Source: an uncultured virus (IMG/VR IMGVR_UViG_3300015245_000039) (taxonomy: Duplodnaviria > Heunggongvirae > Uroviricota > Caudoviricetes). From it: a stretch of DNA of 64,000 nucleotides. Below the pieces are notes generated by a model, which was not told the origin of the DNA, searched no databases, and worked only from the letters and a program-made list of their open reading frames with translations. Positions 10,465 to 38,813 of the stretch are shown here, piece by piece; the first letter of the stretch is position 1; each line of letters starts with the position of its first letter. The stretch lies in the IMG/VR virus record IMGVR_UViG_3300015245_000039, one strand, 5' to 3'. The position numbers were made by a program, and so were the translations under genes.

Positions 10465-10611
10465 AAATAGTCATGGCACTGCTAGCGGTAGGCTTGGCCG
10501 TTCTGGCCGGTCTCGGGGGCTGGAGCGCAGTCTCCTGGGCCTTGTACGCGCTGGCCGCCACCGCCATAGTGACAGGGATCATCCAAGGAATCACGCTAGG
10601 AAGGAGGAAGT

Positions 10612-11127
10612 ATGCCAAAGGTCCACAAGAAGAAGAAGACAGCAAGGGGAACCAAGACATACAGGTGCGTCGCACCTGACTGTCGCTACGACGACCGGGA
10701 GATCAAGCCCGGCCAGAACTACTACGAGTGGACGAAGTACAAGCAACCCTCGCAGTACCAGCACGCCAAGTGTGGATATCCTCGGCGCAGCCAGCTCAGT
10801 GACTCCAAGATGGGCTCAGTCTGGGATGCAGTCGACGGTGCTGCCGTCGGCAACTGCGTGAGCGTCGAGGATATCGAAGCGGCACTCGAGGCAGTTGCGG
10901 CGACAGCTCGTGAAGTAGCGAGTGAGTATGAGGAGGCCGGCAACACGTCCAGTCCTTCGGCCGAGGCCTGCCAGACTATCAGCCAGGAACTGGACTCATG
11001 GGCTGATGACCTCGAGGGCTGGTCACCTGAGGACAAGGGAGACGAGGAGGATCCTGACGAGTGGTTCCAGGCTCAGCGCGACACTGCACAGGAGAAGCTC
11101 GACGAGCAGCCCGAGTACGGCGGCTAG
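10612..11127 (+). CDS. Hypothetical protein, basic Cys/His N-terminus and acidic helical C-terminus
   Basis: Strong RBS (AAGGAGGA); C-x4-C ... H-x2-C pattern. Confidence 0.6.
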   Translation: MPKVHKKKKTARGTKTYRCVAPDCRYDDREIKPGQNYYEWTKYKQPSQYQHAKCGYPRRSQLSDSKMGSVWDAVDGAAVGNCVSVEDIEAALEAVAATAREVASEYEEAGNTSSPSAEACQTISQELDSWADDLEGWSPEDKGDEEDPDEWFQAQRDTAQEKLDEQPEYGG

Positions 11128-12659: not shown

Positions 12660-13196
12660 GTGATCTGCCTCTGGTGTCTAGACCCAGGTCAGCACTCCGG
12701 TGTTGTTTGGGGACGCGTCTGGGAGCAGGGGCTGATTGCGGACAGGCTCGCCCAGCGCTCTCACTGGGGCACGACCACTGTTACCGGCGGCGAGCTCGAG
12801 CAGACGAGGAAGCTCTGGGGTCTGTACCGCGACTTCAGATACGAGTGCCAGAAGGCAGGGCTGAAGGTCGAGATGGTGATTGAAGACTTCATCCTGACAC
12901 GGCTCAAGAGCTCAGACCGGAGCGGTATAAGCCCGGTCCGAGTGACGTCCATGTTCATGGGGTACCGCCACGGCCTGTCAGACGCGTACAATATGGCAGG
13001 CTTCGGACCTACTGAAGTGATCGAGCCTGTGTACCAGCAACCGTCAGATGCAATGACCTACGCGACCGACGAAAGGTTGAGGCGATGGGGACTATGGATC
13101 CCGGGCGCAGAAGCAGAGCACGAGCGGGAAGCGACGAAACACTTCTGCCTCAGAGTAGCGAACAGAGCAAAGATGGCCGCTGGTCAGCAAGTCTGA
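12660..13196 (+). CDS. RuvC-like Holliday junction resolvase
   Basis: LDPGQHSG, VIEDF, QQPSDAM, HEREATKH follow the actinophage RuvC-like pattern. Confidence 0.7.
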   Translation: MICLWCLDPGQHSGVVWGRVWEQGLIADRLAQRSHWGTTTVTGGELEQTRKLWGLYRDFRYECQKAGLKVEMVIEDFILTRLKSSDRSGISPVRVTSMFMGYRHGLSDAYNMAGFGPTEVIEPVYQQPSDAMTYATDERLRRWGLWIPGAEAEHEREATKHFCLRVANRAKMAAGQQV

Positions 13197-13365
13197 AAGA
13201 TGTACTAGCCACGCCGGGCAGAGCTATGTTTGTACCACCCAAGACTACAGAGGAGCAGATCCTTAAGCTAAGAGAGACCCACGGTATCGATGAGCGACGC
13301 GTGTTCTACTCATCTGTACTGCCCGAAGGTAAGGCATACATCCTCGACCCGACGCTGCTGTTCCC

Positions 13366-13854
13366 ATGATCATCGAGTTCAAGGGTAGCTGTGGCTTCCT
13401 CAGCAACTTCTATCCCTGCCCCATCACCTACGAGGGACTGACGTATCCAACATCGGAGCATGCATTCCAGGCTGCGAAGAGTCTCGACCGGGGCACCCGG
13501 CTGATGATCCTGGAGCTGCCCAACCCGCGCTCGGCGAAGTACGCTGGGCGACGCATCGAGCTGCGCGAGGACTGGGAGGATGTCAAGCTGGCGGTGATGA
13601 AGAAGATACTCCAGCTCAAGTTCAATCCAGAGAAGCGCCAGGAGATGGCTGCGCGACTACATGCAACCGGCTCCAAGCTGCTCTGCGAGGGGAACAACTG
13701 GGGCGACGACTACTGGGGAGCTATCTGGGTGCCCAAGAAAAGACCAGGATATCGAAACTGGGCTGGCGCTCCAGGTGGGCCAGTTCTGAGCGGACATAAC
13801 CATCTCGGCATCATTCTGATGGGCATTCGACCCTACATAGTGCTAGATGAATAA
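13366..13854 (+). CDS. NADAR (YbiA-like) family protein
   Basis: FLSNFY, YPTSEHAFQAAK, REDWEDVK, KF, EGN.WGD.YWG, G.NHLG.ILM motifs. Confidence 0.92.
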   Translation: MIIEFKGSCGFLSNFYPCPITYEGLTYPTSEHAFQAAKSLDRGTRLMILELPNPRSAKYAGRRIELREDWEDVKLAVMKKILQLKFNPEKRQEMAARLHATGSKLLCEGNNWGDDYWGAIWVPKKRPGYRNWAGAPGGPVLSGHNHLGIILMGIRPYIVLDE

Positions 13855-13860
13855 CTGCCA

Positions 13861-14007
13861 ACGCGCGCGCACATGCGACCCACCCACTATTTCGCGATGC
13901 TTCTCTGGAGCGCATGTATGCTCTCCTTAGCGCATATATGCGCTCGCGGGAGGGACGAGTACCTGTGCCTCGCGCGCTACGGACGTATGCGCATGTGGGA
14001 GACTACC
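13861..14007. other. Structured non-coding element A (RY-alternating palindromes)
   Basis: Perfect 16-bp palindrome AGCGCATATATGCGCT at 13929-13944; outer CACATGCG/CGCATGTG pair; motifs shared with 62295-62497. Confidence 0.55.
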
Positions 14008-14026
14008 CGTGTCGAGAAGAGTCGAA

Positions 14027-14063
14027 AAGTTAGACAGGCAAATGGGCTATCTTAGAGTAAACT
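14027..14063 (+). promoter_or_regulatory. Putative phage promoter copy 2 (AAGTTAGAC box, 22 nt to TAAACT)
   Basis: Upstream of the replication/recombination operon; same spacing as the other two copies. Confidence 0.65.
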
Positions 14064-14192
14064 ACCCGGCGGGGTGCGGTAGGGTGCGCCGTGCGCAGCC
14101 GGGGCTGGGTGGGGAGATCTTCGGTAGGGGATCAAACCACCCGCTCCAGGCCGGTTGCGCGGCGAGTTATAAGTCTACGAAACAGGGAGCCG

Positions 14193-15227
14193 ATGGCTGC
14201 GCAAGCCGAACCACCAGTCCAGGGGACACCATTCCTGTCGACGTCCGAGCGGGTGACGTTCCGGACGTGTCGATTCCGTTGGTACTACACCTACATGCTC
14301 AGACTCAAGCCGCGCACGGCGGCGACACCGTTGCGCTTCGGAGTTCTGCTGCATAAAGCACTCGAAGGGTACTACAAGCCAGGCGTCAAACGAGGGCCAC
14401 ATCCGTCCGGTCTCTTCGAGCAGGCGTACGAAGCCGAGCTCAAGGAACAAGTCAAGATGGGCTTCAAGGACGAGGAAGGTACTTGGTCAGACGCAGGCGA
14501 GCTCGGCGTCAGTATGTTGGACCACTACATCGACAACTACGGTGCAGACGATGAGTACGAGGTCCTCTCTACTGAGCATCGCTTTGAGCAGCCGATCAGC
14601 ACACCCGGTGGACACCGCGTAGGCATCTACGTCGGCGTCCTAGACCTATTGATGCGTCACCGTCCGAGCAAGCTGCTCGAGATATGGGACCACAAGGGAG
14701 TCAAGTCCATCGACACCGGGTATCTCACACTCGACAGCCAGAGCTCCGGCTATTGGACCTACGGCGTCGACTCTCTGTTGCGCAAGGGCATCCTCAAGGA
14801 CTTACGCTCGCTGCGCACCATCCGCTTCAACTTCCTCCGGAAAGCGAAGCCAGACGAGCGTGCGTGGGAGCACGGACCCGACGGTCAGAAGCTCTATCAG
14901 AACAAGGATGGAACCGTCAGCAAGGTCCAGCCATCGGCCTACTTCATTCGACACCCTTCCCCGCGTAGCGAGCGCGAGCGAGAGCTCGAGCGCCTGATGG
15001 TGGTGGGGGAGCTCAGGGACATTAGACTCGTCAGGGCTGGTAAGCTCGACATGTACAAGTCACCGTCGAAGTTCAACTGCATGTTCTGCGACGTCAGGGA
15101 CATCTGTGAGCTACACCAGAATGGAGGCGACTACGAAGAGATGGCTCGCCTCACCATGATCCCGAAAGGGACTTGGCAGCCTGAGGAGTACAAGAAGGAA
15201 GCTATCGAGTACGAACTAGAGCACTAG
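14193..15227 (+). CDS. PD-(D/E)XK (Cas4/RecB-like) exonuclease
   Basis: S.SE..TF.TC..RW, G..LH.ALE, G.LDLL, IWDHK, C-terminal C..C....C. Confidence 0.88.
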   Translation: MAAQAEPPVQGTPFLSTSERVTFRTCRFRWYYTYMLRLKPRTAATPLRFGVLLHKALEGYYKPGVKRGPHPSGLFEQAYEAELKEQVKMGFKDEEGTWSDAGELGVSMLDHYIDNYGADDEYEVLSTEHRFEQPISTPGGHRVGIYVGVLDLLMRHRPSKLLEIWDHKGVKSIDTGYLTLDSQSSGYWTYGVDSLLRKGILKDLRSLRTIRFNFLRKAKPDERAWEHGPDGQKLYQNKDGTVSKVQPSAYFIRHPSPRSERERELERLMVVGELRDIRLVRAGKLDMYKSPSKFNCMFCDVRDICELHQNGGDYEEMARLTMIPKGTWQPEEYKKEAIEYELEH

Positions 15228-17149: not shown

Positions 17150-19939
17150 GTGGCGACTCGCAAAGCACACCTGCGTCTTCTCGAGCCGTACCTGCTAGGG
17201 GAGCGCGCAAGGGAGAATGGTGAGTGGGACATGTTCTGTCCTCTGCATGAGGATGAGCGCCGTTCAGCGTCCTTGCAGGTGGAGTCGAGCGAGTGGTACT
17301 GCCAAACATGCGGGACTGGCGGCTCGGTGGTGGAGCTCATTCGTCAGAAGGATGACTGGGTTCCACCGCCGAATGTCGCCGCCGCCAACGGAGGACGGTA
17401 CAAGTCTCGTGGCAAGGAGCAACCCATCCCAAGCGAAGCTACCATACAAGGATGGACGAGTGCTCTACTCACCCTTGAGGACAGACTCGACTGGTTGATC
17501 GACAAGCGCATGCTCACCACTGACACCATCGTTCAATACGGCATCGGCTGGGACCGTGACTCACGTGCGTACACTATCCCCATCCGGGATGAGCACGGCG
17601 AGCTGGTGAACGTGCGCCACTACGATCCCAATCCCTCCAGCCAGCGCCGGAAGATCTGGGGGCTGACCGGCCACAACGAGGTACGACTGTATCCACCAGA
17701 GGCACTGGCCCACAAGGAAGTCTTCCTGTTCATGGGCGAGTGGGACATGTTCCTGGCTAGACAGAACTCTATCAACGCCTTCACTCGTACAGGCTCAGAG
17801 GGCGTCTGGCAGAACCAGTGGAGCAATCAGTTCCGTGGCAAGATCGTCTACATCGTCGCTGACCGCGACGACGACGGGTTGAAGGGAGCGCGGAAGGTTG
17901 CGCTGCTCCTCAGCAAGTACGCCGAGGCTGCGTACATCATCGAGCTGCCCTACCGTGTCGAGGCGAAGCACGGCAAGGACTACACTGACATGTGCATCGA
18001 GTTCGGCCCAGACAGATTTTGGGATCTCGTCCCGGACGACGAGACGGGCGAGCCGGACGCCATGCTGTCTCTGAATGGAGAAGGGCCAGAGCTGATCACA
18101 GTCCTGGATTCCTTCGATTCACGACGCGTCGGCGATCCGGCTCGCCTGTTAGTCACGATCAAGGGCAAGCAGGAGCCAGGGTACACCATCCCAAAGACCA
18201 TCGCGCTGAGCTGCACCCAGGACGCCGGGGACAAGTGCGTCCACTGCACGCTGAACGGAGCGCAGGGCCACGATGAGCTGCCCATCGAGGCTGACGACCC
18301 CATCGTGCTCGAACTCATCGACTCCAGCATCACCCATGTGCATGGGACGGTAGCGCGCAACTACGGGATCCCTGGCGGCAAGTGCAATCGCCTTCAAATC
18401 GAGGCCACTAGCTTCCAGTCAGTAGAGATCCTGCATGCCCGTCCGAGCATTGACCATGCCGACGGCTCGCGGGCAGGCGACTACAAGAACATCAAGATCA
18501 CGAGCGTCGGTCGCCACGACACTATGACGAACAACACTGTCGAAGCTCTTGGTGCGCTGTATCCGAATCCACTCAACCAGAAGAACGAGTGGCTAGCGCA
18601 CAGGATTGAGCGGCAGCAGACCAGCGTCGATAGATTCGACCTGACGCCTGAGGCGATCAAACTGATGAAGATCTTCCAGACCCAGGGCCGACCACTGCGC
18701 AAGGTAGCCGACATCTGCAAGGAGCTCTCGCTCAACGTCACCAAGATCTACGGACGCCCGGAGATGCACGCGCTTATGGATCTCACCTTCCACAGCGTCC
18801 TTAGCTGGCACTTCGACGGAGACCTACAGCACCGGGGCTGGCTCGAGGCGCTGGTACTGGGCGACACCCGTACAGGCAAGTCAGAGGCNNNNNNNNNNNN
18901 NNNNNNNNNNNNNNNNNNNNNNNNNNNNNNNNNNNNNNNNNNNNNNNNNNNNNNNNNNNNNNNNNNNNNNNNNNNNNNNNNNNNNNNNNNNNNNNNNNNN
19001 NNNNNNNNNNNNNNNNNNNNNNNNNNNNNNNNNNNNNNNNNNNNNNNNNNNNNNNNNNNNNNNNNNNNNNNNNNNNNNNNNNNNNNNNNNNNNNNNNNNN
19101 NNNNNNNNNNNNNNNNNNNNNNNNNNNNNNNNNNNNNNNNNNNNNNNNNNNNNNNNNNNNNNNNNNNNNNNNNNNNNNNNNNNNNNNNNNNNNNNNNNNN
19201 NNNNNNNNNNNNNNNNNNNNNNNNNNNNNNNNNNNNNNNNNNNNNNNNNNNNNNNNNNNNNNNNNNNNNNNNNNNNNNNNNNNNNNNNNNNNNNNNNNNN
19301 NNNNNNNNNNNNNNNNNNNNNNNNNNNNNNNNNNNNNNNNNNNNNNNNNNNNNNNNNNNNNNNNNNNNNNNNNNNNNNNNNNNNNNNNNNNNNNNNNNNN
19401 NNNNNNNNNNNNNNNNNNNNNNNNNNNNNNNNNNNNNNNNNNNNNNNNNNNNNNNNNNNNNNNNNNNNNNNNNNNNNNNNNNNNNNNNNNNNNNNNNNNN
19501 NNNNNNNNNNNNNNNNNNNNNNNNNNNNNNNNNNNNNNNNNNNNNNNNNNNNNNNNNNNNNNNNNNNNNNNNNNNNNNNNNNNNNNNNNNNNNNNNNNNN
19601 NNNNNNNNNNNNNNNATCGCATTCATGGACAGGGTCTACAACATGAAGCCGATGGGGTACGCCGAGCGCAGCAGGGAGATCATCGCTGACCGCGAGGAGG
19701 CTCGGAAGAACTACGATGACGTCAAGATCTACTTGCACGGTCGCCCTGGCCTTGCGAAGTTCCTGAAGGGTACGGGAAGCTTCCGCCGCCAGGACATCGA
19801 AGAGGTTCTGAACACCGACCGCAGTGATGCGAATAGTGTGGTGAACACTCTTCTCAACGCACGAATGGTGCGTAAGCAGGGAGCAGATGTCCGGGTGGAG
19901 CCTACGCTCCATGAACTACTCAGGGAGGTCAGAGGATGA
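17150..19939 (+). CDS. Primase-helicase: CHC2 zinc finger + TOPRIM + MCM-like helicase (centre unsequenced)
   Basis: CPLHED..SL..WYCQTC; DRDDDG and GKDYTD; C-x6-C-x2-C zinc site; Walker A GDTRTGKS just before the N run; the frame resumes after the gap. Confidence 0.85.
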   Translation: MATRKAHLRLLEPYLLGERARENGEWDMFCPLHEDERRSASLQVESSEWYCQTCGTGGSVVELIRQKDDWVPPPNVAAANGGRYKSRGKEQPIPSEATIQGWTSALLTLEDRLDWLIDKRMLTTDTIVQYGIGWDRDSRAYTIPIRDEHGELVNVRHYDPNPSSQRRKIWGLTGHNEVRLYPPEALAHKEVFLFMGEWDMFLARQNSINAFTRTGSEGVWQNQWSNQFRGKIVYIVADRDDDGLKGARKVALLLSKYAEAAYIIELPYRVEAKHGKDYTDMCIEFGPDRFWDLVPDDETGEPDAMLSLNGEGPELITVLDSFDSRRVGDPARLLVTIKGKQEPGYTIPKTIALSCTQDAGDKCVHCTLNGAQGHDELPIEADDPIVLELIDSSITHVHGTVARNYGIPGGKCNRLQIEATSFQSVEILHARPSIDHADGSRAGDYKNIKITSVGRHDTMTNNTVEALGALYPNPLNQKNEWLAHRIERQQTSVDRFDLTPEAIKLMKIFQTQGRPLRKVADICKELSLNVTKIYGRPEMHALMDLTFHSVLSWHFDGDLQHRGWLEALVLGDTRTGKSEXXXXXXXXXXXXXXXXXXXXXXXXXXXXXXXXXXXXXXXXXXXXXXXXXXXXXXXXXXXXXXXXXXXXXXXXXXXXXXXXXXXXXXXXXXXXXXXXXXXXXXXXXXXXXXXXXXXXXXXXXXXXXXXXXXXXXXXXXXXXXXXXXXXXXXXXXXXXXXXXXXXXXXXXXXXXXXXXXXXXXXXXXXXXXXXXXXXXXXXXXXXXXXXXXXXXXXXXXXXXXXXXXXXXXXXXXXXXXXXXXXXIAFMDRVYNMKPMGYAERSREIIADREEARKNYDDVKIYLHGRPGLAKFLKGTGSFRRQDIEEVLNTDRSDANSVVNTLLNARMVRKQGADVRVEPTLHELLREVRG
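18889..19615. other. Run of 727 N (unsequenced or masked)
   Basis: Seen directly in the sequence. Confidence 0.99.
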
Positions 19940-20486: not shown

Positions 20487-20766
20487 TGTGATCAACGGGG
20501 AGTCAATCGCGACAGCCGAGAGGATGCTCAAGCTGGTGGCTGGAGTAGACGGTATCGACGTGCCGCGCCAGTTCCAGACTTACCAGGTCGACCGCATCGC
20601 ATACGAGAACTTCCACCAGGACATGATGTCGCTGATCATCAAACGAACTCAGGAGCAGCGGCAGCGCATTCCACGCGTCATGATCCCGACACTCAACACT
20701 GTCCTCGCGCATCACTTCCTGGTGGGAGTCGTATGCGGACGCAATGCGGCAGGAGTTCCAGAGTGA
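20487..20766 (+). CDS. Hypothetical protein upstream of the nucleotide cluster (start approximate)
   Basis: GTG after GGGAGGG; stop overlaps the next start. Confidence 0.5.
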
Positions 20767-21572
20767 AGGTCGCAATCCTGGGCTCAGGCATCAACGCACT
20801 GATCGCCGCCTGGGCAGCAGAACGCTCGGGACACGAGCCAGAGCTGATGGCGAATACCGCAACACACTCGGTGATCCCGGCTGACATGTTCCTGCTAGAG
20901 AAGATCCCTGACATCAACGCGCCGAGCTTCCAGCTCGAGGTCTACCTCAAGGGGAACAAGAAGGGATACGCCGAACGGGTCTATGGAGACCCCTCAGCGC
21001 CTTGCGCTCTCGACACCTTTCTTCCAGGGAGGTATGTGGTCTGGGGCATGCGCGAGACCTACGAGCAGCTCTGGCGTATGTACGGCTCTGAGATCAAGGA
21101 GCACGCACTCGAGCACTCAGACCTGGAGGCCATCGCACGCAGCTACGACCTAGCCCTCAGTACCATCCCGGCCAACGTGCTCTGCAGAGGAGATCACTCC
21201 TTCTATGGAGTCGACACCTATCACCTGAAGATTCCTGGTGATGACCGGGGATTCTTCCAGTCCTCCATGGTCTACAACGGAGAGCTCGAGGCTGACACAG
21301 CAGGTGCGAACTGGTACCGCTTCTCGTCCATCAGAGGAATCGATACCTGGGAGTACACACACGTCGTCCCGGGCAGAACAACCACAGGTATCAAGCCGAT
21401 CGAGACTAACTGCGACTGCTATGAGAGCATCGCCACGAGTAGGAGTGCACGTCCTGGGCAGCTGCACCGGATCGGAAGATTCGCTAAGTGGACCAGAGGA
21501 GTACTGGCGCATCACGCTTTCCAGGACACTGTCGCGCACATGGCCAACGAGGGAATGCTGAAGTCAATCTGA
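20763..21572 (+). CDS. FAD-dependent oxidoreductase (Rossmann; UDP-galactopyranose mutase/amine oxidase-like fold)
   Basis: N-terminal KVAILGSGINAL dinucleotide-binding motif, STIP, C-terminal IGRFAKW. Confidence 0.75.
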   Translation: MKVAILGSGINALIAAWAAERSGHEPELMANTATHSVIPADMFLLEKIPDINAPSFQLEVYLKGNKKGYAERVYGDPSAPCALDTFLPGRYVVWGMRETYEQLWRMYGSEIKEHALEHSDLEAIARSYDLALSTIPANVLCRGDHSFYGVDTYHLKIPGDDRGFFQSSMVYNGELEADTAGANWYRFSSIRGIDTWEYTHVVPGRTTTGIKPIETNCDCYESIATSRSARPGQLHRIGRFAKWTRGVLAHHAFQDTVAHMANEGMLKSI

Positions 21573-22168
21573 TGTACGGCGCACTCATGTACCTAGACCG
21601 CAAGATGAAGGAGGCAGCATACATGCACGGTCAGCTCGCATACATCGCAGCACCCATCTTCAACGACGACCAGCGTGCAGTAGTGGAGCAGCTCAAGGAA
21701 GCCCTCGAGTCAACCGGCTTCGAGATCTTCAGCCCGTACCACGCCAGCCAGAAGATCTTCAACGGGCGCAAGCCTGCCGACTGCACTCCCGAGGAGAGAG
21801 CGATGGTGCTGCGCGGGAACGTCAGCCATCTCCACTGTCACCTGCTGCTCGCGTGGGTCGGAGGGAATGAGGGTGGCTTCACCGACCCAGGGGTGGTATG
21901 GGAGATGGGCTATGCAGGGGCGCTGGCTGGGGCACCAGCGGCGTTCGGACGCGGTCCCGGCTACCCGTTCACCCTGGCCTACATCCACGACACTGACGAG
22001 CGCCAGGCGATGAACCTGATGCTCGCCGGTACCGTCGACGGTGTCGTCAAGGGTGGCCAGGAGCTCGCCGTCGCACTAGCCATGGGTGCTCGTCGCAACT
22101 GGGCTACCCTCTCATCTACGTTCACTCCTGATCGCCTGCTCGCGCAGGACAAGGAGCCGGTCGTATGA
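21572..22168 (+). CDS. Nucleoside 2-deoxyribosyltransferase / dNMP N-glycosidase family (alternative start 21623)
   Basis: YIAAPIFN, FEIFSPY, DPGVVWEMGYA with the family's catalytic Glu, MNLML. Confidence 0.85.
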   Translation: MYGALMYLDRKMKEAAYMHGQLAYIAAPIFNDDQRAVVEQLKEALESTGFEIFSPYHASQKIFNGRKPADCTPEERAMVLRGNVSHLHCHLLLAWVGGNEGGFTDPGVVWEMGYAGALAGAPAAFGRGPGYPFTLAYIHDTDERQAMNLMLAGTVDGVVKGGQELAVALAMGARRNWATLSSTFTPDRLLAQDKEPVV

Positions 22169-22395
22169 CTTTAGAGGAATACGTCACTCAGTGGAACTTC
22201 TCTTATTTCAGAGGGGACTGCGGGCATGAATGGGTCTCGCCTGGACATGGTTCCTGGGCGTGCCCTTACTGCGGACGTTACGATGGCAATGGACATCTTG
22301 TCATTCACGAAGAGATCGATTTACGGAAGTTGTCGACAGAAGTCATGCTCAAGTCAATCGCTGCCTACTACGAACTGGCGGGAGCGGGGGCATGA
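22165..22395 (+). CDS. Small zinc-ribbon protein
   Basis: CGH...CPYCG. Confidence 0.55.
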   Translation: MTLEEYVTQWNFSYFRGDCGHEWVSPGHGSWACPYCGRYDGNGHLVIHEEIDLRKLSTEVMLKSIAAYYELAGAGA

Positions 22396-23096
22396 ATCTC
22401 TTCGAAGCAGTCACCGGGAAGGTGACGAGGATGTCGAATGTCACCCGCTACTCCAGCTTCCCGACCATCCGCAAGGAGAACGTCGCTGAGCACTCCTGGT
22501 GGGTCGCATTCATCGGGTATCTGATCGCCGAGGACATGCGAATCGCCGGCTTCCAGATCGACCTGGCAGATGTACTGCGCAAGGCGATCGTCCACGATCT
22601 GAGCGAGTGCATGAGTGGCGACATCATTCGTTCGTACAAGCACACCAACACCAGGGTCCTCGACGCCATGGAGGAGGCCGACGAGGAACACATGGAGCTG
22701 ATGGTCAAGGAGTTCGGGTCTGTCGATGATGTGTGCTTCGACGACTGGATGACCTCCAAGAGCGACAAGATCGAGGGCGAGATCGTACGCTTCGCTGACA
22801 TGGCCACGGTCATCTTCTACTGTCGTACGGAGCGCCAGCTCGGGAACGCCGGTATCGATGTGGTTTTGAAGGAAGTCTACGAGAGCTGGTTCCACAAGTT
22901 CCATGATCATCCTGACCTCAAGGTCTACGCCGACCAGATGTTCCCGTACCGTCACTGGTCTGACCCGTACATGGGTCTCAATCTCAGATTCACCGAGCAC
23001 GTCAAGACGAGACCACTGCTGGGCGATCACAGCGAGGGTCCTGTCTCTCCGCTCGGTATCGATGGTGGCCCCATCAAGGGAGTGCCGTTGTCATGA
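22392..23096 (+). CDS. HD-domain 5'-deoxynucleotidase (YfbR/DatZ-like)
   Basis: R(Y)S..ENVAEHS, VHDLSE..SGDI, IVRFAD. Confidence 0.9.
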   Translation: MNLFEAVTGKVTRMSNVTRYSSFPTIRKENVAEHSWWVAFIGYLIAEDMRIAGFQIDLADVLRKAIVHDLSECMSGDIIRSYKHTNTRVLDAMEEADEEHMELMVKEFGSVDDVCFDDWMTSKSDKIEGEIVRFADMATVIFYCRTERQLGNAGIDVVLKEVYESWFHKFHDHPDLKVYADQMFPYRHWSDPYMGLNLRFTEHVKTRPLLGDHSEGPVSPLGIDGGPIKGVPLS

Positions 23097-23446
23097 AACC
23101 ATTCGCCACGCTCTTCAAAACCGAGACCCACATCGTGATGGTCGACGGTCGCGAGCAGTACAGCATACAGCTCTGGTTGAAGCCCAAAGACATCGAGCAA
23201 GTGCAGGTGATGCTCCAGGCTCTAACCAAGTTCGATAAGCGTAACCTCGGCTACAACGATCTCTGGCAGGAGGGTGGCATTCAAGACTCGGCTCACCACC
23301 TGAAGTCGAAGGCACTGCGGCTGATGTGGTCAGCCGACCCGACTTCTCAGGGGCAGCTCAGCGACGAGGACATGAAGGATGATGCCCTCGACGCCATCAA
23401 CTACGCTTCCTTCTTCCTACGCAACCTCGAGGCTGGGAGAAGATGA
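23093..23446 (+). CDS. DUF1599/MazG-like all-alpha nucleotide-modification-associated protein
   Basis: F.KRN..Y.D.W...G.......K..RL ... DDALDAINYA pattern. Confidence 0.6.
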   Translation: MKPFATLFKTETHIVMVDGREQYSIQLWLKPKDIEQVQVMLQALTKFDKRNLGYNDLWQEGGIQDSAHHLKSKALRLMWSADPTSQGQLSDEDMKDDALDAINYASFFLRNLEAGRR

Positions 23447-23627
23447 CCAAGCTTATCAGATCAGACTCGATCCTACTCGCGCTCCAGGAAGAAGGACTAC
23501 TCCCCAGCGAGTGCTATAGGATCACGATTGAGGATGATGTCAACCAGGGAGTGGTCGTAATCATGTTCAGCTGCTACATGACAGACGAGCGCTTGGCAGC
23601 AGTCTCAAAGGCGACAGGACACGACTA

Positions 23628-26600
23628 GTGCCAGGTCACGGCAACAGGCTCGAGCAATACTCAGTCCGCGACTTCAAGCGCAAAGTCGAGGGCGACGACT
23701 GCGATCACGAGGAACAGCCTGCCTGGATCCGTGCCAAGAAGAAGACATCGAAACTCCCGGTGATCAAGAGACCGATGCGGTTCAAGTCGCTTCACCACCA
23801 CTCCACCTTCAGCTTCCTTGACGGCTATCAGCTTCCAGCTGCCCATGCGCGGAGAGCTGCTGAGCTCGAGATGGGCAACATCGCTCTGACCGAGCACGGT
23901 AACGTCTCGTCGCATGTGCAGCTGGAGTCTGCTTGCCACGACAAGAAGGACAAGTTCGGTGACCCAAACCCGGCCTACGGGATCAAGCCGATCTTCGGGG
24001 TCGAGCTGTACTGCGGTCCCATAGACGAAGAGTCACGGCAGCAGACCAAGAACCATCTGACGGTACTGGCAGAGACCCAGGCCGGGTACACCAACATGCT
24101 CCAGCTCGTAGGCCGAACCTTCACGGAGGGATTCTACTACCATGAAACTTCCAGCTATCCAATGCTCAGAGAACATTCCAAAGGGCTGGTTGTTCTGTCC
24201 GGATGCCAAGGGTCTCTACTGTTTACATCTCTCCTCGGGGGTAAGGGTATTGATCGAGCTGACGCCGGATATCACCGAGCTGAGGATATCGCCCGATCCT
24301 TCCAGAGGAACCTGGGAGATAGTTACTATATCGAGGTTCAAGCTTTCCCAGAGCTAGAAGACACCTGCGCTGCTAATCCTCAGCTAGCCATGATCGCACG
24401 CAAGCTGAAGATTCCACTCGTGGCTACGCTCGACTGCCACTACACGCTGCCGGAGGAGAACGAGATCCAGAAGGTGCTACACAACATCAGAGGCGGCGGC
24501 AAGCAAACGCTCGAGGAGATGTCCAGGACGTGGGGCTACAAGGCCGAGCTCTGCCCACCCCTGACTGATGCGATCCTGATGAGGAAGCTGATGGCGACGG
24601 GGCTGACCAAGCAGGAGGCGATCAACTCAATCCTCACCACCGAGGAGATAGCCTCGCGCTGCAACGTAGAGATTCCTTCGCTGCCGATGCTGCGCTACGA
24701 GACGGATGATCCGGTCAAGCTCTGGCGGCAGTGGCTTGAGCAGGGCTGGGAGAAGCGTGGCTGCCAGCGCCTACCGCGTGGACAGCGGATGGAGTACCGT
24801 CGTAGGCTAGAGCGTGAGCGCAAGGTAATCGAGGACAAGGACTTCATCGACTACTTCCTGATCGTGGCGGATGCAGTCCAGTGGGTCAAGCGTCAGGACT
24901 ACACTGTAGGCCCAGCTCGTGGCTCGGCGGCAGGAAGCTTGGTGTGCTGGCTGCTCGAGATCACTGAGGTCAATCCCATGCGCTACCCAAACTTGATCTT
25001 CGAGAGGTTCATCGATGAAACCAGAGAAGACCTCCCTGACATTGATCTCGATTTCCCCTCAGAGGCCAGGAACCCCCTGGTTGACTATCTGGCTGCGAAG
25101 TATGGGCGGGAGTGCGTCAATAACATCGGAACCTTTAGCACCTGGAAGGCTCCTATGGCGCTTGACGACGCCGCGAGGGTCTACGGTGTCCCCAAGTACA
25201 AGGTCGAGTCGGTCAAGGATGTCCTGATCGAGCGGAGCTCAGGCGACCTACGCGCCAGCGCGACCATTGAGGACACGGTTGATCAGTTCGACATCGCCCG
25301 TTCTGTCTTCGAGGAGCACCCTGACCTGGGCATCGCCATGGAGCTCGAGGGGAACGTCAAGGGCATGGGTGTCCACGCAGCCGGCATCGTGATCAGCGCA
25401 GGCCCAGTCACCGACGTCTGTGCAGTGTACGAGCGCAGCGTCAAGGACAAGGTCTACAAGGTGGTGTCGCTCGACAAGTATTCGGCCGAGAAGAAGAACC
25501 TGCTCAAGATCGACATGCTGGGGCTCGCCAACATGAGCTTCATCGATGCGTGCCGGAAGGAGATCGGATGGTCACTCGCCGACCTGTACGACTACATCTA
25601 CGAGCACGACGATGACCCTGTCGTTATTGACGCATTCCGACGGAATGATGTGGTGGGCATCTTCCAGTTCGACGGCAGGGCTTGCCGCTACGTCTGCGGC
25701 GCTCTGGGTCCGGACACCTTCATGGAGATCTGTGACATCACTGCACTTGCTCGACCCGGCCCTCTTCATAATGGCGCTGCGAACGAGTACATCGAGATCA
25801 AGCACGGGAACAAGAAGCCCGAGCTCGTCCACCCCGCACTAGAGGACATTACCAAGAATACGTACTATCAGATTGTGTACCAGGAGCAGATTCTCCGCAT
25901 CGTTGTGGAGATCGGGCAGTTTGACTGGACCCACGCTGCTGAGATTAGACGCATCATCTCGCGCAAGCACGGCGAGCAGGCGTTCAACCGGAAGCGCGAC
26001 GAGTTCCTGGCCGGGGCCACCAAGCTCCACAAACGTAGCGACTGGCCGGAGATAGAGGAAGAGCTGGCGCTCCGTATCTGGGGAGACTGCATCACTGCTG
26101 GAGCCTACGCCTTCAACGCCTCTCACTCCATCAGCTACGGCACCATCGGCTTCTGGTCGCAGCGATTCAAGCAGTACGACCCCGAGCTCTACTACTACAT
26201 GGGTCTACGCCACATGTCTGACGCGAAGCACAACGACATGATCCGCGACGCGGTGCGACATGGAATCAAGGTACTGCCCCCGATACCTGGACGGAGCGGG
26301 AACACCTGGCGCAAGGATGCACCGAAGGCGATCAGGGCAGGCTACGAGCAGGTGAAGGGCATCGGAGACAAGCTCTCTGTGAGGATTCAGGAGTTCGCTG
26401 AGAAGACTCCTATTGAGACGTGGGACGATCTGATCAAGGTGCATGGTGTCGGTCCTAAGACCGTTGAAGCGATCAAGGCACTGCAGCATTCAGACGACCC
26501 ATTCGGGGCACTGTGGATTGATCGGGCACTCGCTGAAGTTAAGCGAGCCATTCGCGAGGGCGAGCTCGGTCAGGTGCCCTATCCCTCCCATACGTCACTG

Positions 26601-26969
26601 GACATTCCCTATGCAAGAGGCAAGGATATTCCAGTAGTGTGGCTCGGGTTGGTCCACAACCGGAACGTACGAGACATCTTCGAGTACAACCGGGCGAAGG
26701 GTGAGGAGATAGATCTTGAAGCCATGACCATCGGCGGCAAGCCTATCGAGCGTCCTGACCTAAACGAGTGGATGGTCATGGTGGGTGACGACGAGCATGA
26801 CCAGATGGGCCTTCGGGTGGATCGGTACAAGTACCCGAAGTTTCGGGCGGCGCTGTGGGGTATGCGTCTGGGCGCGGAGCTTCTCCTCGTCAAGGGGTAT
26901 AAACCGGGATTCCTGTCAACCCGACAGATCTGGGTGAATGATCTGTGGGTGATTGATCCGGAGATCTGA
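23628..26969 (+). CDS. dnaE: DNA polymerase III alpha subunit (C-family polymerase)
   Basis: PHP motifs HHHSTFSFLDG, TEHG, GVELY, LDCHY; GPARGSAAGS, PDIDLD, GVHAAG, KIDMLGL, YQEQI, YAFNASH. Confidence 0.97.
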   Translation: MPGHGNRLEQYSVRDFKRKVEGDDCDHEEQPAWIRAKKKTSKLPVIKRPMRFKSLHHHSTFSFLDGYQLPAAHARRAAELEMGNIALTEHGNVSSHVQLESACHDKKDKFGDPNPAYGIKPIFGVELYCGPIDEESRQQTKNHLTVLAETQAGYTNMLQLVGRTFTEGFYYHETSSYPMLREHSKGLVVLSGCQGSLLFTSLLGGKGIDRADAGYHRAEDIARSFQRNLGDSYYIEVQAFPELEDTCAANPQLAMIARKLKIPLVATLDCHYTLPEENEIQKVLHNIRGGGKQTLEEMSRTWGYKAELCPPLTDAILMRKLMATGLTKQEAINSILTTEEIASRCNVEIPSLPMLRYETDDPVKLWRQWLEQGWEKRGCQRLPRGQRMEYRRRLERERKVIEDKDFIDYFLIVADAVQWVKRQDYTVGPARGSAAGSLVCWLLEITEVNPMRYPNLIFERFIDETREDLPDIDLDFPSEARNPLVDYLAAKYGRECVNNIGTFSTWKAPMALDDAARVYGVPKYKVESVKDVLIERSSGDLRASATIEDTVDQFDIARSVFEEHPDLGIAMELEGNVKGMGVHAAGIVISAGPVTDVCAVYERSVKDKVYKVVSLDKYSAEKKNLLKIDMLGLANMSFIDACRKEIGWSLADLYDYIYEHDDDPVVIDAFRRNDVVGIFQFDGRACRYVCGALGPDTFMEICDITALARPGPLHNGAANEYIEIKHGNKKPELVHPALEDITKNTYYQIVYQEQILRIVVEIGQFDWTHAAEIRRIISRKHGEQAFNRKRDEFLAGATKLHKRSDWPEIEEELALRIWGDCITAGAYAFNASHSISYGTIGFWSQRFKQYDPELYYYMGLRHMSDAKHNDMIRDAVRHGIKVLPPIPGRSGNTWRKDAPKAIRAGYEQVKGIGDKLSVRIQEFAEKTPIETWDDLIKVHGVGPKTVEAIKALQHSDDPFGALWIDRALAEVKRAIREGELGQVPYPSHTSLDIPYARGKDIPVVWLGLVHNRNVRDIFEYNRAKGEEIDLEAMTIGGKPIERPDLNEWMVMVGDDEHDQMGLRVDRYKYPKFRAALWGMRLGAELLLVKGYKPGFLSTRQIWVNDLWVIDPEI

Positions 26970-26999
26970 TGCGCCGCGAACTCATCGGAAGGGAGACGG

Positions 27000-27533
27000 T
27001 TGCGGTATCCGCTAGTCATCCTGTTTGCATTCTTCGCCCTGATCGTGGCGGCGGACGCGAACGCTCATTTGATGGTGACCAAGAAGTGCACGACACTCTC
27101 GTGCATCAACGGACGCCAGCTACAGAACCTGAAGCACGCCCGGTACGTCTGCCATCATGGGGCGAACCAAACGAAGCGATGGAACTGCACAGCACTCAGA
27201 TGGCTCAAGCGCGAGTACGACGAGACAGAGGCGGTGTTGCACCCCAGGGTGACAGCGTCGTCGCACTACACCGGATGGTCGTGTATAACGAACGGTGCCT
27301 ATCCGGGTGCTCCACACGAGGGGAACGGCTACAACGGTTCGTATGTGGGACCACTCGGGATGACCACTCCCTGGGCAGGCCACTATCCGACCGGAAGCGA
27401 CTGGGTCCATACACCGCTGACAGTCGTATACGGGTATGCGGAGCAGGAGGGTGCAAGACATGGGTTCGCCGACTGGTGGATGCGCCAGCAGTGGCCCAGG
27501 ACTTATCCGCCCTGCTCGGGATTCTTCAACTAG
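27000..27533 (+). CDS. Secreted Rpf/lysozyme-like protein
   Basis: Signal peptide ending ANA; W.CI...HEG...Y.GPLGM...AE...WP.T..C resembles a divergent Rpf transglycosylase domain. Confidence 0.5.
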   Translation: MRYPLVILFAFFALIVAADANAHLMVTKKCTTLSCINGRQLQNLKHARYVCHHGANQTKRWNCTALRWLKREYDETEAVLHPRVTASSHYTGWSCITNGAYPGAPHEGNGYNGSYVGPLGMTTPWAGHYPTGSDWVHTPLTVVYGYAEQEGARHGFADWWMRQQWPRTYPPCSGFFN

Positions 27534-27540
27534 GAGGGCA

Positions 27541-27765
27541 ATGGACAATCAGCACAGGGAGATCAAAGGATACCGCGATCTTTCTCGAGATGAGATCGAT
27601 GCTATGAATGAGATCAAGGCTGTCGGGGAGGCTGTCGGTGTAGTCGTCGACAAGCTACGTGCAGCCGACGGGCTCGATCAACGCTGGGTCAGCATCGGAG
27701 CCACCGATCTACAGAAGGGCTTCATGGCACTCGTGAGAGCTGTCGCGCAGCCCACTACGTTCTAA
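27541..27765 (+). CDS. acb2: Anti-CBASS cyclic oligonucleotide sponge, Acb2 family
   Basis: MDNQHREIKGYRDLS.DEID.MNEIK ... RW.SIG.TDLQ.GFMAL.RAVAQP..F matches the Acb2 termini as I recall them; RBS AGGAGG. Confidence 0.88.
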   Translation: MDNQHREIKGYRDLSRDEIDAMNEIKAVGEAVGVVVDKLRAADGLDQRWVSIGATDLQKGFMALVRAVAQPTTF

Positions 27766-27775
27766 GGGAGGGAGC

Positions 27776-28807
27776 ATGTCGGATGAGATCGTAAAGTGGG
27801 GAGACAATGCTCAATACGTCTCCGCACCCATGAAGACCACGGGAGTGCAGGTCAGGCCAGAAGCTCACTTGCTCTGGGCTACACCTGATCCCCTCGGCGC
27901 CATCGCTGCAGCGGCGCGGATGTACAAGGGCATCCCCACTTACGATCTCTCCGAGATCACGGACTCGGAGCGTAAGCTGTACTGGGAGGAGACGTTCAAG
28001 TCACACCTTCGCGCTCCGCACGAATACGTTCAGTTCCACTTCTTCGTGGAGGGAGTTACCCGCTCCCACACCCATCAGATGGTTCGGCAACGGACCGCCA
28101 CCTTCTCTCAGGAGAGCCTCCGCTTCGCCGTCAAGGAGAATCTCGCACAGGAGACACCACTGCCTCCGAGTATCGCTGAGGGTACAGCAGCGGCGACTCA
28201 ATGGATCGCCTGTCTGGAGCGCATTCAGGCGGTGTACGACATGCTCGTCAACAGCGGTATCCCAGCTGAGGACGCTCGAGGCTTGCTGCCTCACGCCACC
28301 ACGACTCGGTTGCACTGGCGCACCGGACTCAACGACCTCCTGCACCACGCCGGCAATCGTCTCTGCACCCAGGCTCAGTTCGAGTGGCGCATCCTGATGG
28401 TCTCGATCATGAAGGCGATCAGGGAACACGGACGCAAGGCAGCAGGGTACAGAGCGTTCGTCGAGGGTAGTGCTGCTGCGATGGATCCTCCCTCCACAAG
28501 TATCGAGGATAGTTCTTGGCAGTGGGAGGAGATTGGTCGAGCTCAGCCTCATACCTTCGCGCCCATCTGCTACCAGACTGGCAAGTGCGAGTTCAAGGCC
28601 ATCTTCGATAGACCCTGCGCCATCCGTGACCGCGTCGATGCCTTTGCCGAACACGGGGTATCGAGCACCAAGTGGTCTGAGGGAGCTCACGTCAAGTATG
28701 TCGGAGAAGTTGTACCTGGTACGGGAGGGGAGCGCGTCGAAGGTGGACGTTGGATTCCAGGAATCAACTATGAGGAGTGGCTCATGAATCCGGATGCGGC
28801 TCGATGA
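27776..28807 (+). CDS. thyX: ThyX-family flavin-dependent thymidylate synthase homologue (non-canonical motifs)
   Basis: VEGVTR..THQMVRQRTATFSQESLRF, EDARGLLP, R.CTQAQFEWR; extra C-terminal C-x4-C-x9-C. Confidence 0.85.
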   Translation: MSDEIVKWGDNAQYVSAPMKTTGVQVRPEAHLLWATPDPLGAIAAAARMYKGIPTYDLSEITDSERKLYWEETFKSHLRAPHEYVQFHFFVEGVTRSHTHQMVRQRTATFSQESLRFAVKENLAQETPLPPSIAEGTAAATQWIACLERIQAVYDMLVNSGIPAEDARGLLPHATTTRLHWRTGLNDLLHHAGNRLCTQAQFEWRILMVSIMKAIREHGRKAAGYRAFVEGSAAAMDPPSTSIEDSSWQWEEIGRAQPHTFAPICYQTGKCEFKAIFDRPCAIRDRVDAFAEHGVSSTKWSEGAHVKYVGEVVPGTGGERVEGGRWIPGINYEEWLMNPDAAR

Positions 28808-29112
28808 TGCCTGAAGCGATTGTCGGCCACAAGGTCAGAGCGTTCTGCAACTCACTCACCGCGCTGCCCAGTCCTGTGGACGAAGCGCAGACCCAGAGTG
28901 GAATCATCGTCCCGCTCAGTCACCACGAGGAGTCACAGAACAAGATCTACAGGGGAGTAGTCACGACCAAGGGGTTGTCTCCTTGTGAGTCGTGGGATGA
29001 GCTGAAGACCGGCATGGTGATCTACTACCGTTCCTTCTACGAGATCGCTGACGTGCACATCGTATACCACGATGACATCATCGCATACGAGGAGGAGAAC
29101 TATGAAGGTTGA
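28804..29112 (+). CDS. GroES-like co-chaperonin
   Basis: TQSGIIVP mobile loop, RGVV..KG, LKTG..IY, DDIIA. Confidence 0.65.
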   Translation: MMPEAIVGHKVRAFCNSLTALPSPVDEAQTQSGIIVPLSHHEESQNKIYRGVVTTKGLSPCESWDELKTGMVIYYRSFYEIADVHIVYHDDIIAYEEENYEG

Positions 29113-36315: not shown

Positions 36316-38813
36316 ACCGCTTCGCCCTTCAGGAACTTAACTGGGTCGACCATGTTGTCGTAGTTGTAGCCGCCAGCGTAGGTCTTCCAGACCTCGATGT
36401 GACAGTGTGTGCTATTAGGATTGTCATGCCAGGGAGCTACTGAAGCGACCACATGACCCTGCTTGACTCTGGCTCCTTGCTTGAACGCGAGCACTGGCCG
36501 AACATGTCTGAACACCCAGACGTAGCCGTTATCCTGCTGGAGCTTTACCTGGCCACCGAATACCTGCCCCGAATCAGAGCTCGTGTCAGGCTCGATGAGG
36601 ATCAGTGTACCGTCAATCGGAGCCACTACATTCGAGCCGGCTGGAGCAAACCAGTCCTTGCCAGCGTGGTGGCGAATACCAACGGAGTCAGGAGCTCCCT
36701 CGGCATCGACATAGGTGAACTCGCTCTTGGAGAGATTACCGTCGGTGGCCAGAGGAGCGACATACCCCTTGCCGATCTTCGCAGTATTCATCTTCTGGCC
36801 AGCGGACGCGCCCTGGTTGGATCCATCCTGGGGAAGCCCGATGTTGCTGAGATCAAGTCCCTGGCTCTGGACAGGCTCAGGCAGCGTCGGCATGGGCTTC
36901 TTGCAGGTGATAGTGATGATCGGGCTGAACAGGGAGCGAGAGATGTTCGTGATCAGCCAACGTCCTGTGATGACCGGACCCATCTCGAGGATGGCGATCA
37001 TGCTACCGGGCGGAGCGACCCAGCGATCTCCGAAGGCAGTGACGGTGACCTCGGCATTCCTCTCACCGATGTCGAAGCGGTAGTCAATCTTGATCACCGC
37101 ATCGTCGTACTCACCATTCAGAGTCATCAGCGGACGACTGCGGAACAGGTACGGCTCTGAGATGTAGTAGAAGCGACCCGAGACCATGAAGCGACGCCAT
37201 TGAACTTCATCAGCTAGACGCAGCGAGCAGTCCCAGGTATTCTCTTTCGTGACCTTGGTCTTGCCGCCGCTCTGGCTGAACTGACCACGAGTGAACTGGT
37301 AGTCGTTACCGGCTGCGCTCCCGAGGAAGATCGATCCGTCGCTGCTCACCAGCAGCTCGCTCAGGGCATCGTTGGTCTGAACTACTACATCCCCGTCCTT
37401 GCCCTTGATGCCGAATGATGTGACAGTGTGCTCAGCCTCCGTGCGGTAGAGCTCGTAACGCTCAGGGAAGGCAGAGATCTGTACAGCCTGGGCGAGCTCG
37501 CCGTATCCCAGGAATGGCTCGTCAGCGTCCTTCTTGATGGCCCGATCGAAGAAGGTGCCAGCGGCGTACTCTGGATTCGTGACCTGGGCATAGGTTCCCC
37601 AGCCCTGGCTCGGGCGCTGCTGGAACAGTCCTGCACTGTCAGCGTCGCCACCAGAGAGGTTGTGGGCAGTTGACTCGACGGTGATGGTCATGATCGCGGT
37701 GACCAGAACCTTCCGCCTTGCCTTCTTCTTGATGCCCACCTTGAGGACTCTGGTGATCATCTCCTTCTGGCCCTGGTCAGCCACAGCGTTCTTGACAGTG
37801 ACACGCTGACCGACTGGGAAGCCTACCGCACGATTCTTGTCGTCCTGGCTCTGCTGGCTTGACGCAGGAATCGCTCCGTCAGAGGAGCCTACGGTCTTGG
37901 CGTCCTCGAGCTCCGGGCAGTAGAAGTCGATGTTGAGTTCCTTGACTTCACGCACCATGTCACGAATGAACTTCGGACGAGTGGTCTGCCCCCATGCGGC
38001 GGTCTTCGGCTTGTTGTACTTCCGCAGGATGTAGACCTCACGATCCTCCCACTTCAGCGTAAGCTCGTCATCCTGCTTCTCGATCCCAACGAGCGCGAAC
38101 CATAGACCGTCGATGTTGGTGTAGACGTCCTTGGCGAGATACGGTGAGTTCTGAAGTGTGCGCTCGTAGTCAATCGCAGCGATCGTCAGGGTACTGGCCC
38201 CTTCAATCGTGCGCTCGACATCGGCTGCGGTGACAGCGTTGATGATCCACTCTGACTGGTAGCCAGCAAGATTCAGATTGAGCGTGTTGAGGTCTACGTC
38301 TCCGGTGACGGCCTCGAGCTGGCTGTTCTGCAGCTTCTTGACTCTGGCGGTCTCGTCGCTGTCCTTGGACTTCTTCTTGCTGTCGACTGTCTTCTTAGGC
38401 TTCCAGTCAGCATCGAAGATGATGGTGCCGTCACGGTCATCGATCAACTGATTTCCGTGCCACTTGAAAGGAGTTCCAGGCTTCGCGTACTGAGACTCAC
38501 CTGAGAAGGTTGTGTCGTATGGAGTCTTGTACGTGTCCGGGAAGTGATCACCAGCGGCGTGGACCGGGAGCACCGCAGTGCCACCATTCGCAAGCCAGTA
38601 TCCTCGCATGTCGTAATCGACGATGCTGGCGTTGACATCGAAGGGGATGTTGAAGTAGACGACCCAGCTCTTGAAGTTCGCTTCTTGGACAAGCGTGAGA
38701 GCTGTGACCCAACTACCAGCGACGGCCCAGGCCTGATTGTGTCGAAGAGCTGCGTCGTAATACTTCGGACCTTCGGCGGTGAAGATCGGGCGCTTGTTCT
38801 TTGTGGCCGTCAT
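36312..38813 (-). CDS. Baseplate hub protein with lysozyme-like and M23 peptidase domains
   Basis: VES...NL..GD.DSAGLFQQRPSQGWG; HAGKD..AP.G..V.APIDG ... HCHIEV (M23). Confidence 0.8.
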   Translation of the reverse strand: MTATKNKRPIFTAEGPKYYDAALRHNQAWAVAGSWVTALTLVQEANFKSWVVYFNIPFDVNASIVDYDMRGYWLANGGTAVLPVHAAGDHFPDTYKTPYDTTFSGESQYAKPGTPFKWHGNQLIDDRDGTIIFDADWKPKKTVDSKKKSKDSDETARVKKLQNSQLEAVTGDVDLNTLNLNLAGYQSEWIINAVTAADVERTIEGASTLTIAAIDYERTLQNSPYLAKDVYTNIDGLWFALVGIEKQDDELTLKWEDREVYILRKYNKPKTAAWGQTTRPKFIRDMVREVKELNIDFYCPELEDAKTVGSSDGAIPASSQQSQDDKNRAVGFPVGQRVTVKNAVADQGQKEMITRVLKVGIKKKARRKVLVTAIMTITVESTAHNLSGGDADSAGLFQQRPSQGWGTYAQVTNPEYAAGTFFDRAIKKDADEPFLGYGELAQAVQISAFPERYELYRTEAEHTVTSFGIKGKDGDVVVQTNDALSELLVSSDGSIFLGSAAGNDYQFTRGQFSQSGGKTKVTKENTWDCSLRLADEVQWRRFMVSGRFYYISEPYLFRSRPLMTLNGEYDDAVIKIDYRFDIGERNAEVTVTAFGDRWVAPPGSMIAILEMGPVITGRWLITNISRSLFSPIITITCKKPMPTLPEPVQSQGLDLSNIGLPQDGSNQGASAGQKMNTAKIGKGYVAPLATDGNLSKSEFTYVDAEGAPDSVGIRHHAGKDWFAPAGSNVVAPIDGTLILIEPDTSSDSGQVFGGQVKLQQDNGYVWVFRHVRPVLAFKQGARVKQGHVVASVAPWHDNPNSTHCHIEVWKTYAGGYNYDNMVDPVKFLKGEAV

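Follow-up and report, generated by a model that had tools for sequence, protein, structure and literature searches.

The 64,000-nucleotide stretch analysed here (the window; IMG/VR record IMGVR_UViG_3300015245_000039, an uncultured member of the Caudoviricetes) carries between positions 20763 and 28807 a run of genes around a phage DnaE polymerase that includes a deviant homologue of the thymidylate synthase ThyX. Judged from its sequence, this cluster is probably a variant form of phage thymidine hypermodification, and we put the probability that the phage DNA contains modified thymidine at roughly 0.7. A first-pass annotation had proposed that five genes of the run, encoding a flavoprotein, an N-glycosidase of deoxynucleoside monophosphates (dNMPs), an HD nucleotidase, a MazG-like protein and ThyX, make a non-canonical pyrimidine. 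That part of the proposal is circumstantially well supported by the loss of His53 and Tyr91 from ThyX, by the sugar-derived thymidines of Pbunavirus phages, by NDT-family and HD proteins shared with SP-15-type phages and by the palindrome content of the window; general co-occurrence of the five families and the dNMP glycosidase assignment are not supported. The five genes are real, but they form two modules. A core of flavoprotein, DUF1599 protein, DnaE and deviant ThyX is common to the PBI1-like actinophage lineage, and the NDT and HD genes belong to one subclade of it.

The enzyme run upstream of dnaE, with ThyX downstream, is borne out in gene content and order by the open reading frames (ORFs) and their family matches. 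In a Pfam scan of 94 window ORFs (small ORFs and the masked part of the primase were left out) there was no match to a methyltransferase, PurZ, a 7-deazaguanine gene or a dCMP deaminase, in agreement with what had been claimed earlier, and none to ThyA or a glycosyltransferase.

The deviant ThyX

The thyX gene (27776..28807, + strand, as are all genes of the run) matches PF02511 (E 1e-32) and its product has a fold match to a solved ThyX (Foldseek 1e-9), with a score below the TIGR02170 cut-off (73.6 vs 87.9 bits). The protein resembles canonical T. maritima ThyX (TM0449) in fold, Ser88 and Arg78, 80, 90, 147 and 174. It differs from it, in the alignment to solved ThyX, by the substitutions His53 to Leu78, His79 to Gln105 and Tyr91 to Phe117 (T. 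maritima numbering first) and by a C-terminal extension that carries a cysteine cluster. Across 67 aligned family members Arg78, Arg80, Ser88, Arg90, Arg147 and Arg174 are kept without exception; position 53 is Leu in 66 and Ile in one, position 91 is Phe in all 67 and position 79 is never His, the RHRx7S motif of ThyX reading RQRx7S in the window. The ThyX of phage L5, taken as a control, retains His53, RHR and Tyr91. In the accessible text of PMC11940539 His53 is described as stacking the folate, and Tyr91 as strictly conserved, its mutation slowing the T. maritima enzyme 1000-fold. Because the substrate residues are kept and His53 and Tyr91 are lost, the deviant ThyX has probably retained binding of FAD and dUMP and no longer takes up folate in the canonical manner.

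These residues also bear on a plainer explanation, in which an unusual but working dTMP synthase acts alongside pool-cleaning hydrolases and salvage enzymes, the DNA is canonical and any palindrome bias mirrors host restriction enzymes. The invariance of Ser88 and of all the substrate arginines accords with such a housekeeping role, as does the fact that no second thymidylate synthase was found in the window; that two residues reported to be conserved and critical are lost in every family member argues against it. On this and the evidence given below we regard the housekeeping explanation as unlikely.

Comparison with phages whose thymidine modification has been measured

The available portion of PMC5977210 states that thymine in SP-15 bears a dihydroxypentyl chain made before replication and cites a reported incorporation of ribose label, and the accessible part of PMC12686479 gives linkers on thymine of 88 Da for Carin-5 and 104 Da for YerA41. 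For the Pbunaviruses F8 and 14-1, the text available from bioRxiv 2025.03.31.646159 describes sugar-derived T+120 and T+148 (nucleosides of 362 and 390 Da) that replace about one quarter of T, at TG. When the mass of a reductive coupling is calculated as deoxyuridine (dU) plus aldehyde minus oxygen, a dideoxypentose gives 330, a 2-deoxypentose 346, a pentose 362 and an oxohexose 390; the values 330, 346 and 362 equal published ones. F8 gp59 matches the profile of the window ThyX family at E 3e-36 and is likewise without His53 and Tyr91, and F8 gp65 has a weak match to the flavoprotein profile, gp57 one to the DUF1599 profile. F8 and 14-1 are therefore like the window in having a deviant ThyX, a distant flavoprotein, a fusion of HAD with a weakly DUF1599-like part, and DnaE. 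They differ in that their ThyX has Ala for Tyr91 and Thr for His79, their modification is at TG only and NDT was not found. It may be added that, as far as the available text goes, Pbunaviruses were also thought unmodified until measured, which weakens the housekeeping explanation.

NDT is present in all five SP-15-type phages tested, adjoining their deviant ThyX in several, and SDR in three of the five; of the companions of SP-15-type ThyX, both NDT and HD are present in the window. SP-15, Carin-5 and YerA41 resemble the window in a deviant Thy1-family protein, NDT and a similar HD protein, and differ in a separate, longer ThyX family, a PolA polymerase, further glycosylation and the lack of the flavoprotein. 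Their gp130 family, seen in our loci L007 (SP-15 gp127-130, at 38729-41910) and L088-L093, looks from its sequence like two ThyX halves in tandem, and may together with NDT and SDR be the dihydroxypentyluracil synthase.

The NDT, HD and DUF1599 proteins

The nucleoside 2'-deoxyribosyltransferase/hydrolase (NDT) gene lies at 21623..22168, with an alternative start at 21572; the start is likely 21623, as supported by a ribosome-binding site and by homologues. Its product matches PF05014 (E 3.8e-12) and has the catalytic Tyr and Glu of the superfamily (motif residues Tyr, Asn, Asp, Glu, Asn). Judged by alignment it keeps DPG and NLML, i.e. the Asp/Asn of the 5'-OH pocket. In the part of PMC12884076 available, Asp/Asn is tied to binding of nucleosides with a free 5'-OH, relatives that act on dNMPs have small uncharged residues in the 5'-phosphate pocket, and the NDT-family protein DmtZ acts on dAMP in Z phages. 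The protein had been read earlier as a dNMP N-glycosidase of DNPH1/MilB/DmtZ type; with its 5'-OH pocket retained it looks nucleoside-acting instead. Since NDT keeps Tyr, Glu and the Asp/Asn of the nucleoside pocket, action of HD and then NDT in series appears likelier than a dNMP glycosidase. A tblastn search with the window NDT gave no match among 50,697 phage records.

The HD gene (22392..23096; PF12917, E 3.9e-23) encodes a YfbR/DatZ-like 5'-deoxynucleotidase. Its closest matches in named phages are in SP-15-type phages, and seven of the ten matched phage records also carry a ThyX of SP-15 gp130 type; its best PHROG is a family named dATP triphosphohydrolase. The 117-aa product of 23093..23446, which had been called MazG-like, is assigned at family level to DUF1599 (nucleotide modification associated domain 1; PF07659). 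On its own it has no Pfam match, 11 of its 53 aligned relatives match PF07659 and its first Atlas cluster is PF07659 (66%). A search of solved structures with the DUF1599 alignment gave nothing significant and no MazG-fold match. We presume that the protein is a pyrophosphatase.

The name of the HD PHROG, the action of DmtZ on dAMP (as given in the available text on Z phages) and an Acb2/Tad1 gene next door, which may serve as a hint, could all be accommodated if another base were altered (A or G in GA/CA, or C) or if the enzymes countered nucleotide-based defences. We consider this very improbable: the scanned ORFs have no match to PurZ, an adenine methyltransferase or a deazaguanine gene, the uracil-binding residues of ThyX are kept, and the relatives that have been measured modify T.

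The helpers of Z-DNA synthesis, DatZ, DmtZ and MazZ, resemble the cluster in that HD, NDT-family and pyrophosphatase helpers stand next to a phage polymerase; the window differs in having no PurZ and, going by the accessible text of PMC12884076, in an NDT whose 5'-OH pocket still has the Asp/Asn missing from DmtZ. The Z-DNA pathway was rejected on the missing PurZ match. The hmdU (5-hydroxymethyl-dU) and 5-HMUDK pathways were set aside as well, no ThyA-type hydroxymethylase or kinase being matched among the scanned ORFs.

The flavoprotein

The first gene of the run (20763..21572) matches phrog_8720 (E 2.9e-31); no Pfam profile, that of GLF included, matches it. The model of its product (pLDDT 92.5) has a small GR2-type flavoprotein fold, and its top Foldseek match is UDP-galactopyranose mutase (E 5e-10, TM 0.57). 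VIA-align also places a mutase first (Z 14.4, root mean square deviation 4.1, 256 aligned residues), followed by a second mutase (Z 13.4) and protoporphyrinogen oxidase (Z 13.3), and viral GLF clusters are among its Atlas matches at 0.91-0.92. In a comparison with the E. coli Glf profile, weak at E 0.012, the flavin-side GxQYLH motif of the flavoprotein family aligns with GAHIFH of the mutase. The window protein reads ADMFLL at this site. Although the mutase is its best fold match, the window flavoprotein is about 100 residues shorter, is 10-18% identical and belongs to a clade in which the motif His is lost; membership of the mutase family is not supported, as there is no GLF match and the GAH motif is not kept.

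The flavin-side G..H motif is present in none of five NDT-linked flavoproteins, as against 44 of 49 others. The five form a single clade (100/98), so that loss of the motif together with NDT linkage counts as one event and is no more than suggestive. With the motif gone, the flavoprotein of the NDT clade possibly serves another role than the tailoring of the side chain proposed earlier.

Distribution in relatives

Of the 50,697 phage records searched, 115 match the flavoprotein, all of them actinophages, and 113 match ThyX over at least 80% of its length. Scanning viral contigs with the one flavoprotein sequence gave no confirmed relative, and relatives were picked by a ThyX scan. The resulting 87 ThyX loci, many of them incomplete, comprise 80 viral contigs (of 87 found), six named phages and the window, each with 10 kb flanks. 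Their gene clusters include DnaE in 77, the flavoprotein in 65, a DUF1599-like protein in 63, a HAD nucleotidase in 40, SDR in 28, a methyltransferase in 16 and a TAGT-like transferase in 9. When 54 records hand-selected from these loci were searched whole, the flavoprotein was found in 51, including all 31 near-complete viral relatives picked by ThyX. NDT was above the cut-off in two records and weakly present in a third, so general co-occurrence of all five families, as foreseen earlier, is not seen. A profile search matches 661 representatives at E <=1e-30. Because the relatives are kin, finding the genes together is no proof that they act together.

Scans with an alignment of NDT gave 12 loci, about eight of them distinct. 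The flavoprotein stands immediately 5' of NDT in five distinct genomes, and HD is nearby in all NDT loci except one incomplete locus. A 99% complete record of the same lineage (L205; G047, 7900-14500) combines NDT, HD, DUF1599 and DnaE with a third deviant ThyX, further degenerate and without the RxR motif, and has no flavoprotein. A different locus (L208; G048, 3800-8500) belongs to a DnaE phage with HD, NDT and a ThyX of SP-15 gp130 type (E 5e-49).

The PBI1-like actinophages compared were mycobacteriophage PBI1 (gp58-65), Gordonia phages Sadboi and Terapin, Microbacterium phage Sparcetus, Arthrobacter phage Wollypog and Streptomyces phage PHTowN. Their replication module has flavoprotein, DUF1599-like, DnaE and ThyX-like families in similar order to the window; it differs in a HAD nucleotidase, in some phages with SDR, methyltransferase or glycosyltransferase, and in having NDT in none of the six. 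Its core genes are annotated only as oxidoreductase and ThyX-like, and no published function was found. That 115 cultured relatives have been sequenced and annotated and the literature search found no report of modification favours housekeeping. Against that, the run includes the gene of a mutase-like flavoprotein in all 31 of the 31 genomes and, as optional members, genes for SDR, a methyltransferase and a glycosyltransferase, none of which such a role would need.

Palindromes

Several palindromes had been judged common by eye. Their counts (observed/expected) are at expectation for CTCGAG (94/81), GAGCTC (79/79) and GTCGAC (41/43) and low for CTAG (112/153). Nor does the supposed absence of palindrome avoidance survive counting: ACCGGT (0/12), GGGCCC (0/6.7), GGCGCC (2/14.5), CCGCGG (4/14.9) and AATT (5/34) are strongly avoided. 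AATT and the non-palindromic CACCTC/GAGGTG (2/30) are likely host restriction sites. In a grouping chosen after looking at the window, palindromes with TC or TG are spared (697/775, 0.90 of expected) and those without are avoided (177/346, 0.51 of expected; 70/150 for T-less ones), and a codon-shuffle null agrees with this bias. The log2 ratio of the two groups is +0.81 in the window, with a median of +0.48 in 18 relatives (at most the first 60 kb of each) against -0.05 in eight control phages without the flavoprotein (rank test p 0.002, ignoring kinship and host). As expected for known cases, F8 and 14-1 spare TG (0.97) but not TC (0.65-0.67) and SP-15 is nearly without T-less 4-mers (0.00-0.20). 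The bias cannot name the modified base, because within palindromes TC equals GA and TG equals CA, and to this extent an alteration of another base would fit it too.

Among individual genomes, mycobacteriophage PG1 (L178-L180) has no flavoprotein, and in it TG palindromes are spared and T-less ones avoided to the same degree as in the window. AGCT is wholly absent from G012 (L132-L134) and G021 (L138-L140), and CGCG stands at 0.07-0.18 in G003, G008 and G012.

Proposed mechanism and alternatives

The most specific account that we favour, although at somewhat below even odds, is that ThyX couples a sugar aldehyde to dUMP. Part of the thymidines, mainly those in TC/TG contexts, would then bear on C5 a side chain derived from a sugar, which would shield the DNA from restriction. 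The ThyX-like flavoenzyme, with FAD and dUMP still bound, would carry on its flavin N5 a sugar aldehyde instead of the methylene from folate and couple it reductively to dUMP; supplying or reshaping the sugar donor would, for most of the lineage, be the task of the mutase-like flavoprotein. Such a pairing is chemically sensible, because the mutase and ThyX both bear an aldehyde carbon on flavin N5. In the NDT subclade HD would turn dNMP into nucleoside and NDT would split the nucleoside into base and 2-deoxyribose; working in series, the two would supply 2-deoxyribose and drain dTMP, and the predicted product is 5-(trihydroxypentyl)-dU, of 346 Da, or a near derivative. The DUF1599 protein would presumably trim dUTP/dTTP to the monophosphate and the phage DnaE would insert the modified nucleotide.

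More tentatively still, ThyX-fold flavoenzymes free of the folate site may in general be enzymes of reductive C5 alkylation, with sugar aldehydes as the groups joined to dUMP. The modifications of SP-15 and Carin-5 (330 Da), of YerA41 (346 Da) and of Pbunavirus F8 (362 Da) would then all come from a single reaction.

A number of observations weigh against the favoured interpretation. Two points chiefly lack an explanation: a bulky dNMP calls for a dNMP kinase, for which the 94 scanned ORFs have no Pfam match, and a modification tied to sequence context, such as that at TG in F8, is more readily understood as a step after replication than as one at the level of the pool. The link to the Pbunavirus flavoprotein is weak (E 3e-7 in a 16-protein set), whole Pbunavirus genomes have no match to the flavoprotein profile at 1e-3 and the available text of bioRxiv 2025.03.31.646159 names no genes for the thymidine modification. 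The same profile matches PBI1 and none of five SP-15-type genomes. Membership of the window ThyX in the SP-15 gp130 type was rejected (hhalign probability 2%; the gp130 profile matches no window ORF). In fold comparison the mutase leads other flavoproteins, monooxygenases included, by about 1 Z. Core co-occurrence lies within one lineage and the NDT clade is one event. As to the palindromes, one of the eight controls, PG1, shows the same bias (+0.88, above the window), as housekeeping would allow; TG alone is nominally spared in three of the eight, relative G027 stands at -0.09, and F8 and 14-1 are near 0 on the combined TC/TG statistic. The literature search found no base measurement for the window phage or its actinophage relatives, and no paper linking the present ThyX/flavoprotein module to a modified base, most subscription papers lying outside its reach.

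Some of these points would be met by a two-stage route, in which the ThyX variant goes no further than 5-hydroxymethyl-dUMP or some other one-carbon adduct, sugar is added on the DNA at TC/TG after replication by the mutase-like flavoprotein or an optional glycosyltransferase, and NDT and HD only drain dTMP. It would account for the sequence context seen in F8 and in the palindrome pattern and would make a bulky-nucleotide kinase unnecessary. The masses 362 and 390, which are also those of an hmdU-tetritol ether and an hmdU-pentoside, fit it equally, and the TAGT-like transferase of nine loci is in its favour. No glycosyltransferase was recognised in the window, loss of the folate-stacking His speaks against a folate carbon, and a further reduction step would be needed, since F8 keeps canonical T at three quarters of positions according to the accessible preprint text. 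The presence of NDT beside three deviant ThyX families would also be left unexplained, and we find the two-stage route doubtful. Part of the probability given both to it and to sugar-aldehyde coupling assumes a dNMP kinase beyond those recognised.

Genomic setting

The window (G+C about 58%) comes from a contractile-tailed phage with sheath, baseplate J and Mu-like portal genes. The tightly coupled run lies between primase and dnaE, with gene junctions that mostly overlap (ATGA or 1 base), and thyX is 0.8 kb 3' of dnaE. The latter (23628..26969) encodes a DnaE-type DNA polymerase III alpha with PHP and finger domains (PF07733, E 2.9e-69). Three genes were missing from the first-pass annotation: a 76-aa ORF (22165..22395) with Cys/His pairs, a possible zinc ribbon for which no homologue was found; a 61-aa ORF (23443..23628) without Pfam or PHROG match; and the gene for an Acb2/Tad1-like anti-defence sponge protein (27541..27765; PF24729, E 1.2e-18) between dnaE and thyX. 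A 177-aa ORF with a hydrophobic N-terminus (27000..27533), outside the core, has no family match and has homologues in 18 of the 87 loci. A GroES-like ORF (28804-29112; phrog_3188, E 0.002) overlaps the thyX stop and is kept in the two closest relatives. Further upstream are a primase/helicase gene (17150-19939), part of which reads N, and a NADAR-domain gene (13366-13854; PF08719, E 5e-21) with a possible role in removing ADP-ribose from DNA. A scan for promoters and terminators gave chance-level matches only, and a search for tRNAs found none.

Significance

How the C5 pentyl chain of SP-15 DNA arises has been a standing question since the 1970s, and so is which genes make Pbunavirus sugar-thymidine; the cluster offers candidate enzymes and a mass prediction. 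What the window adds is the swap to NDT and HD, which ties the core to SP-15-type chemistry, and a specific mass to look for. If the general C5-alkylase activity were true, the PBI1-like actinophages, long taken as unmodified, would carry polyol-thymidine, and the NDT clade would be a hybrid in which donor supply has been swapped from the mutase-like flavoprotein to deoxyribose freed by HD and NDT. The ThyX family would gain a new carbon-carbon forming activity, and many actinophages, as well as therapy phages with a related core, would harbour concealed DNA modifications that determine the host defences they encounter.

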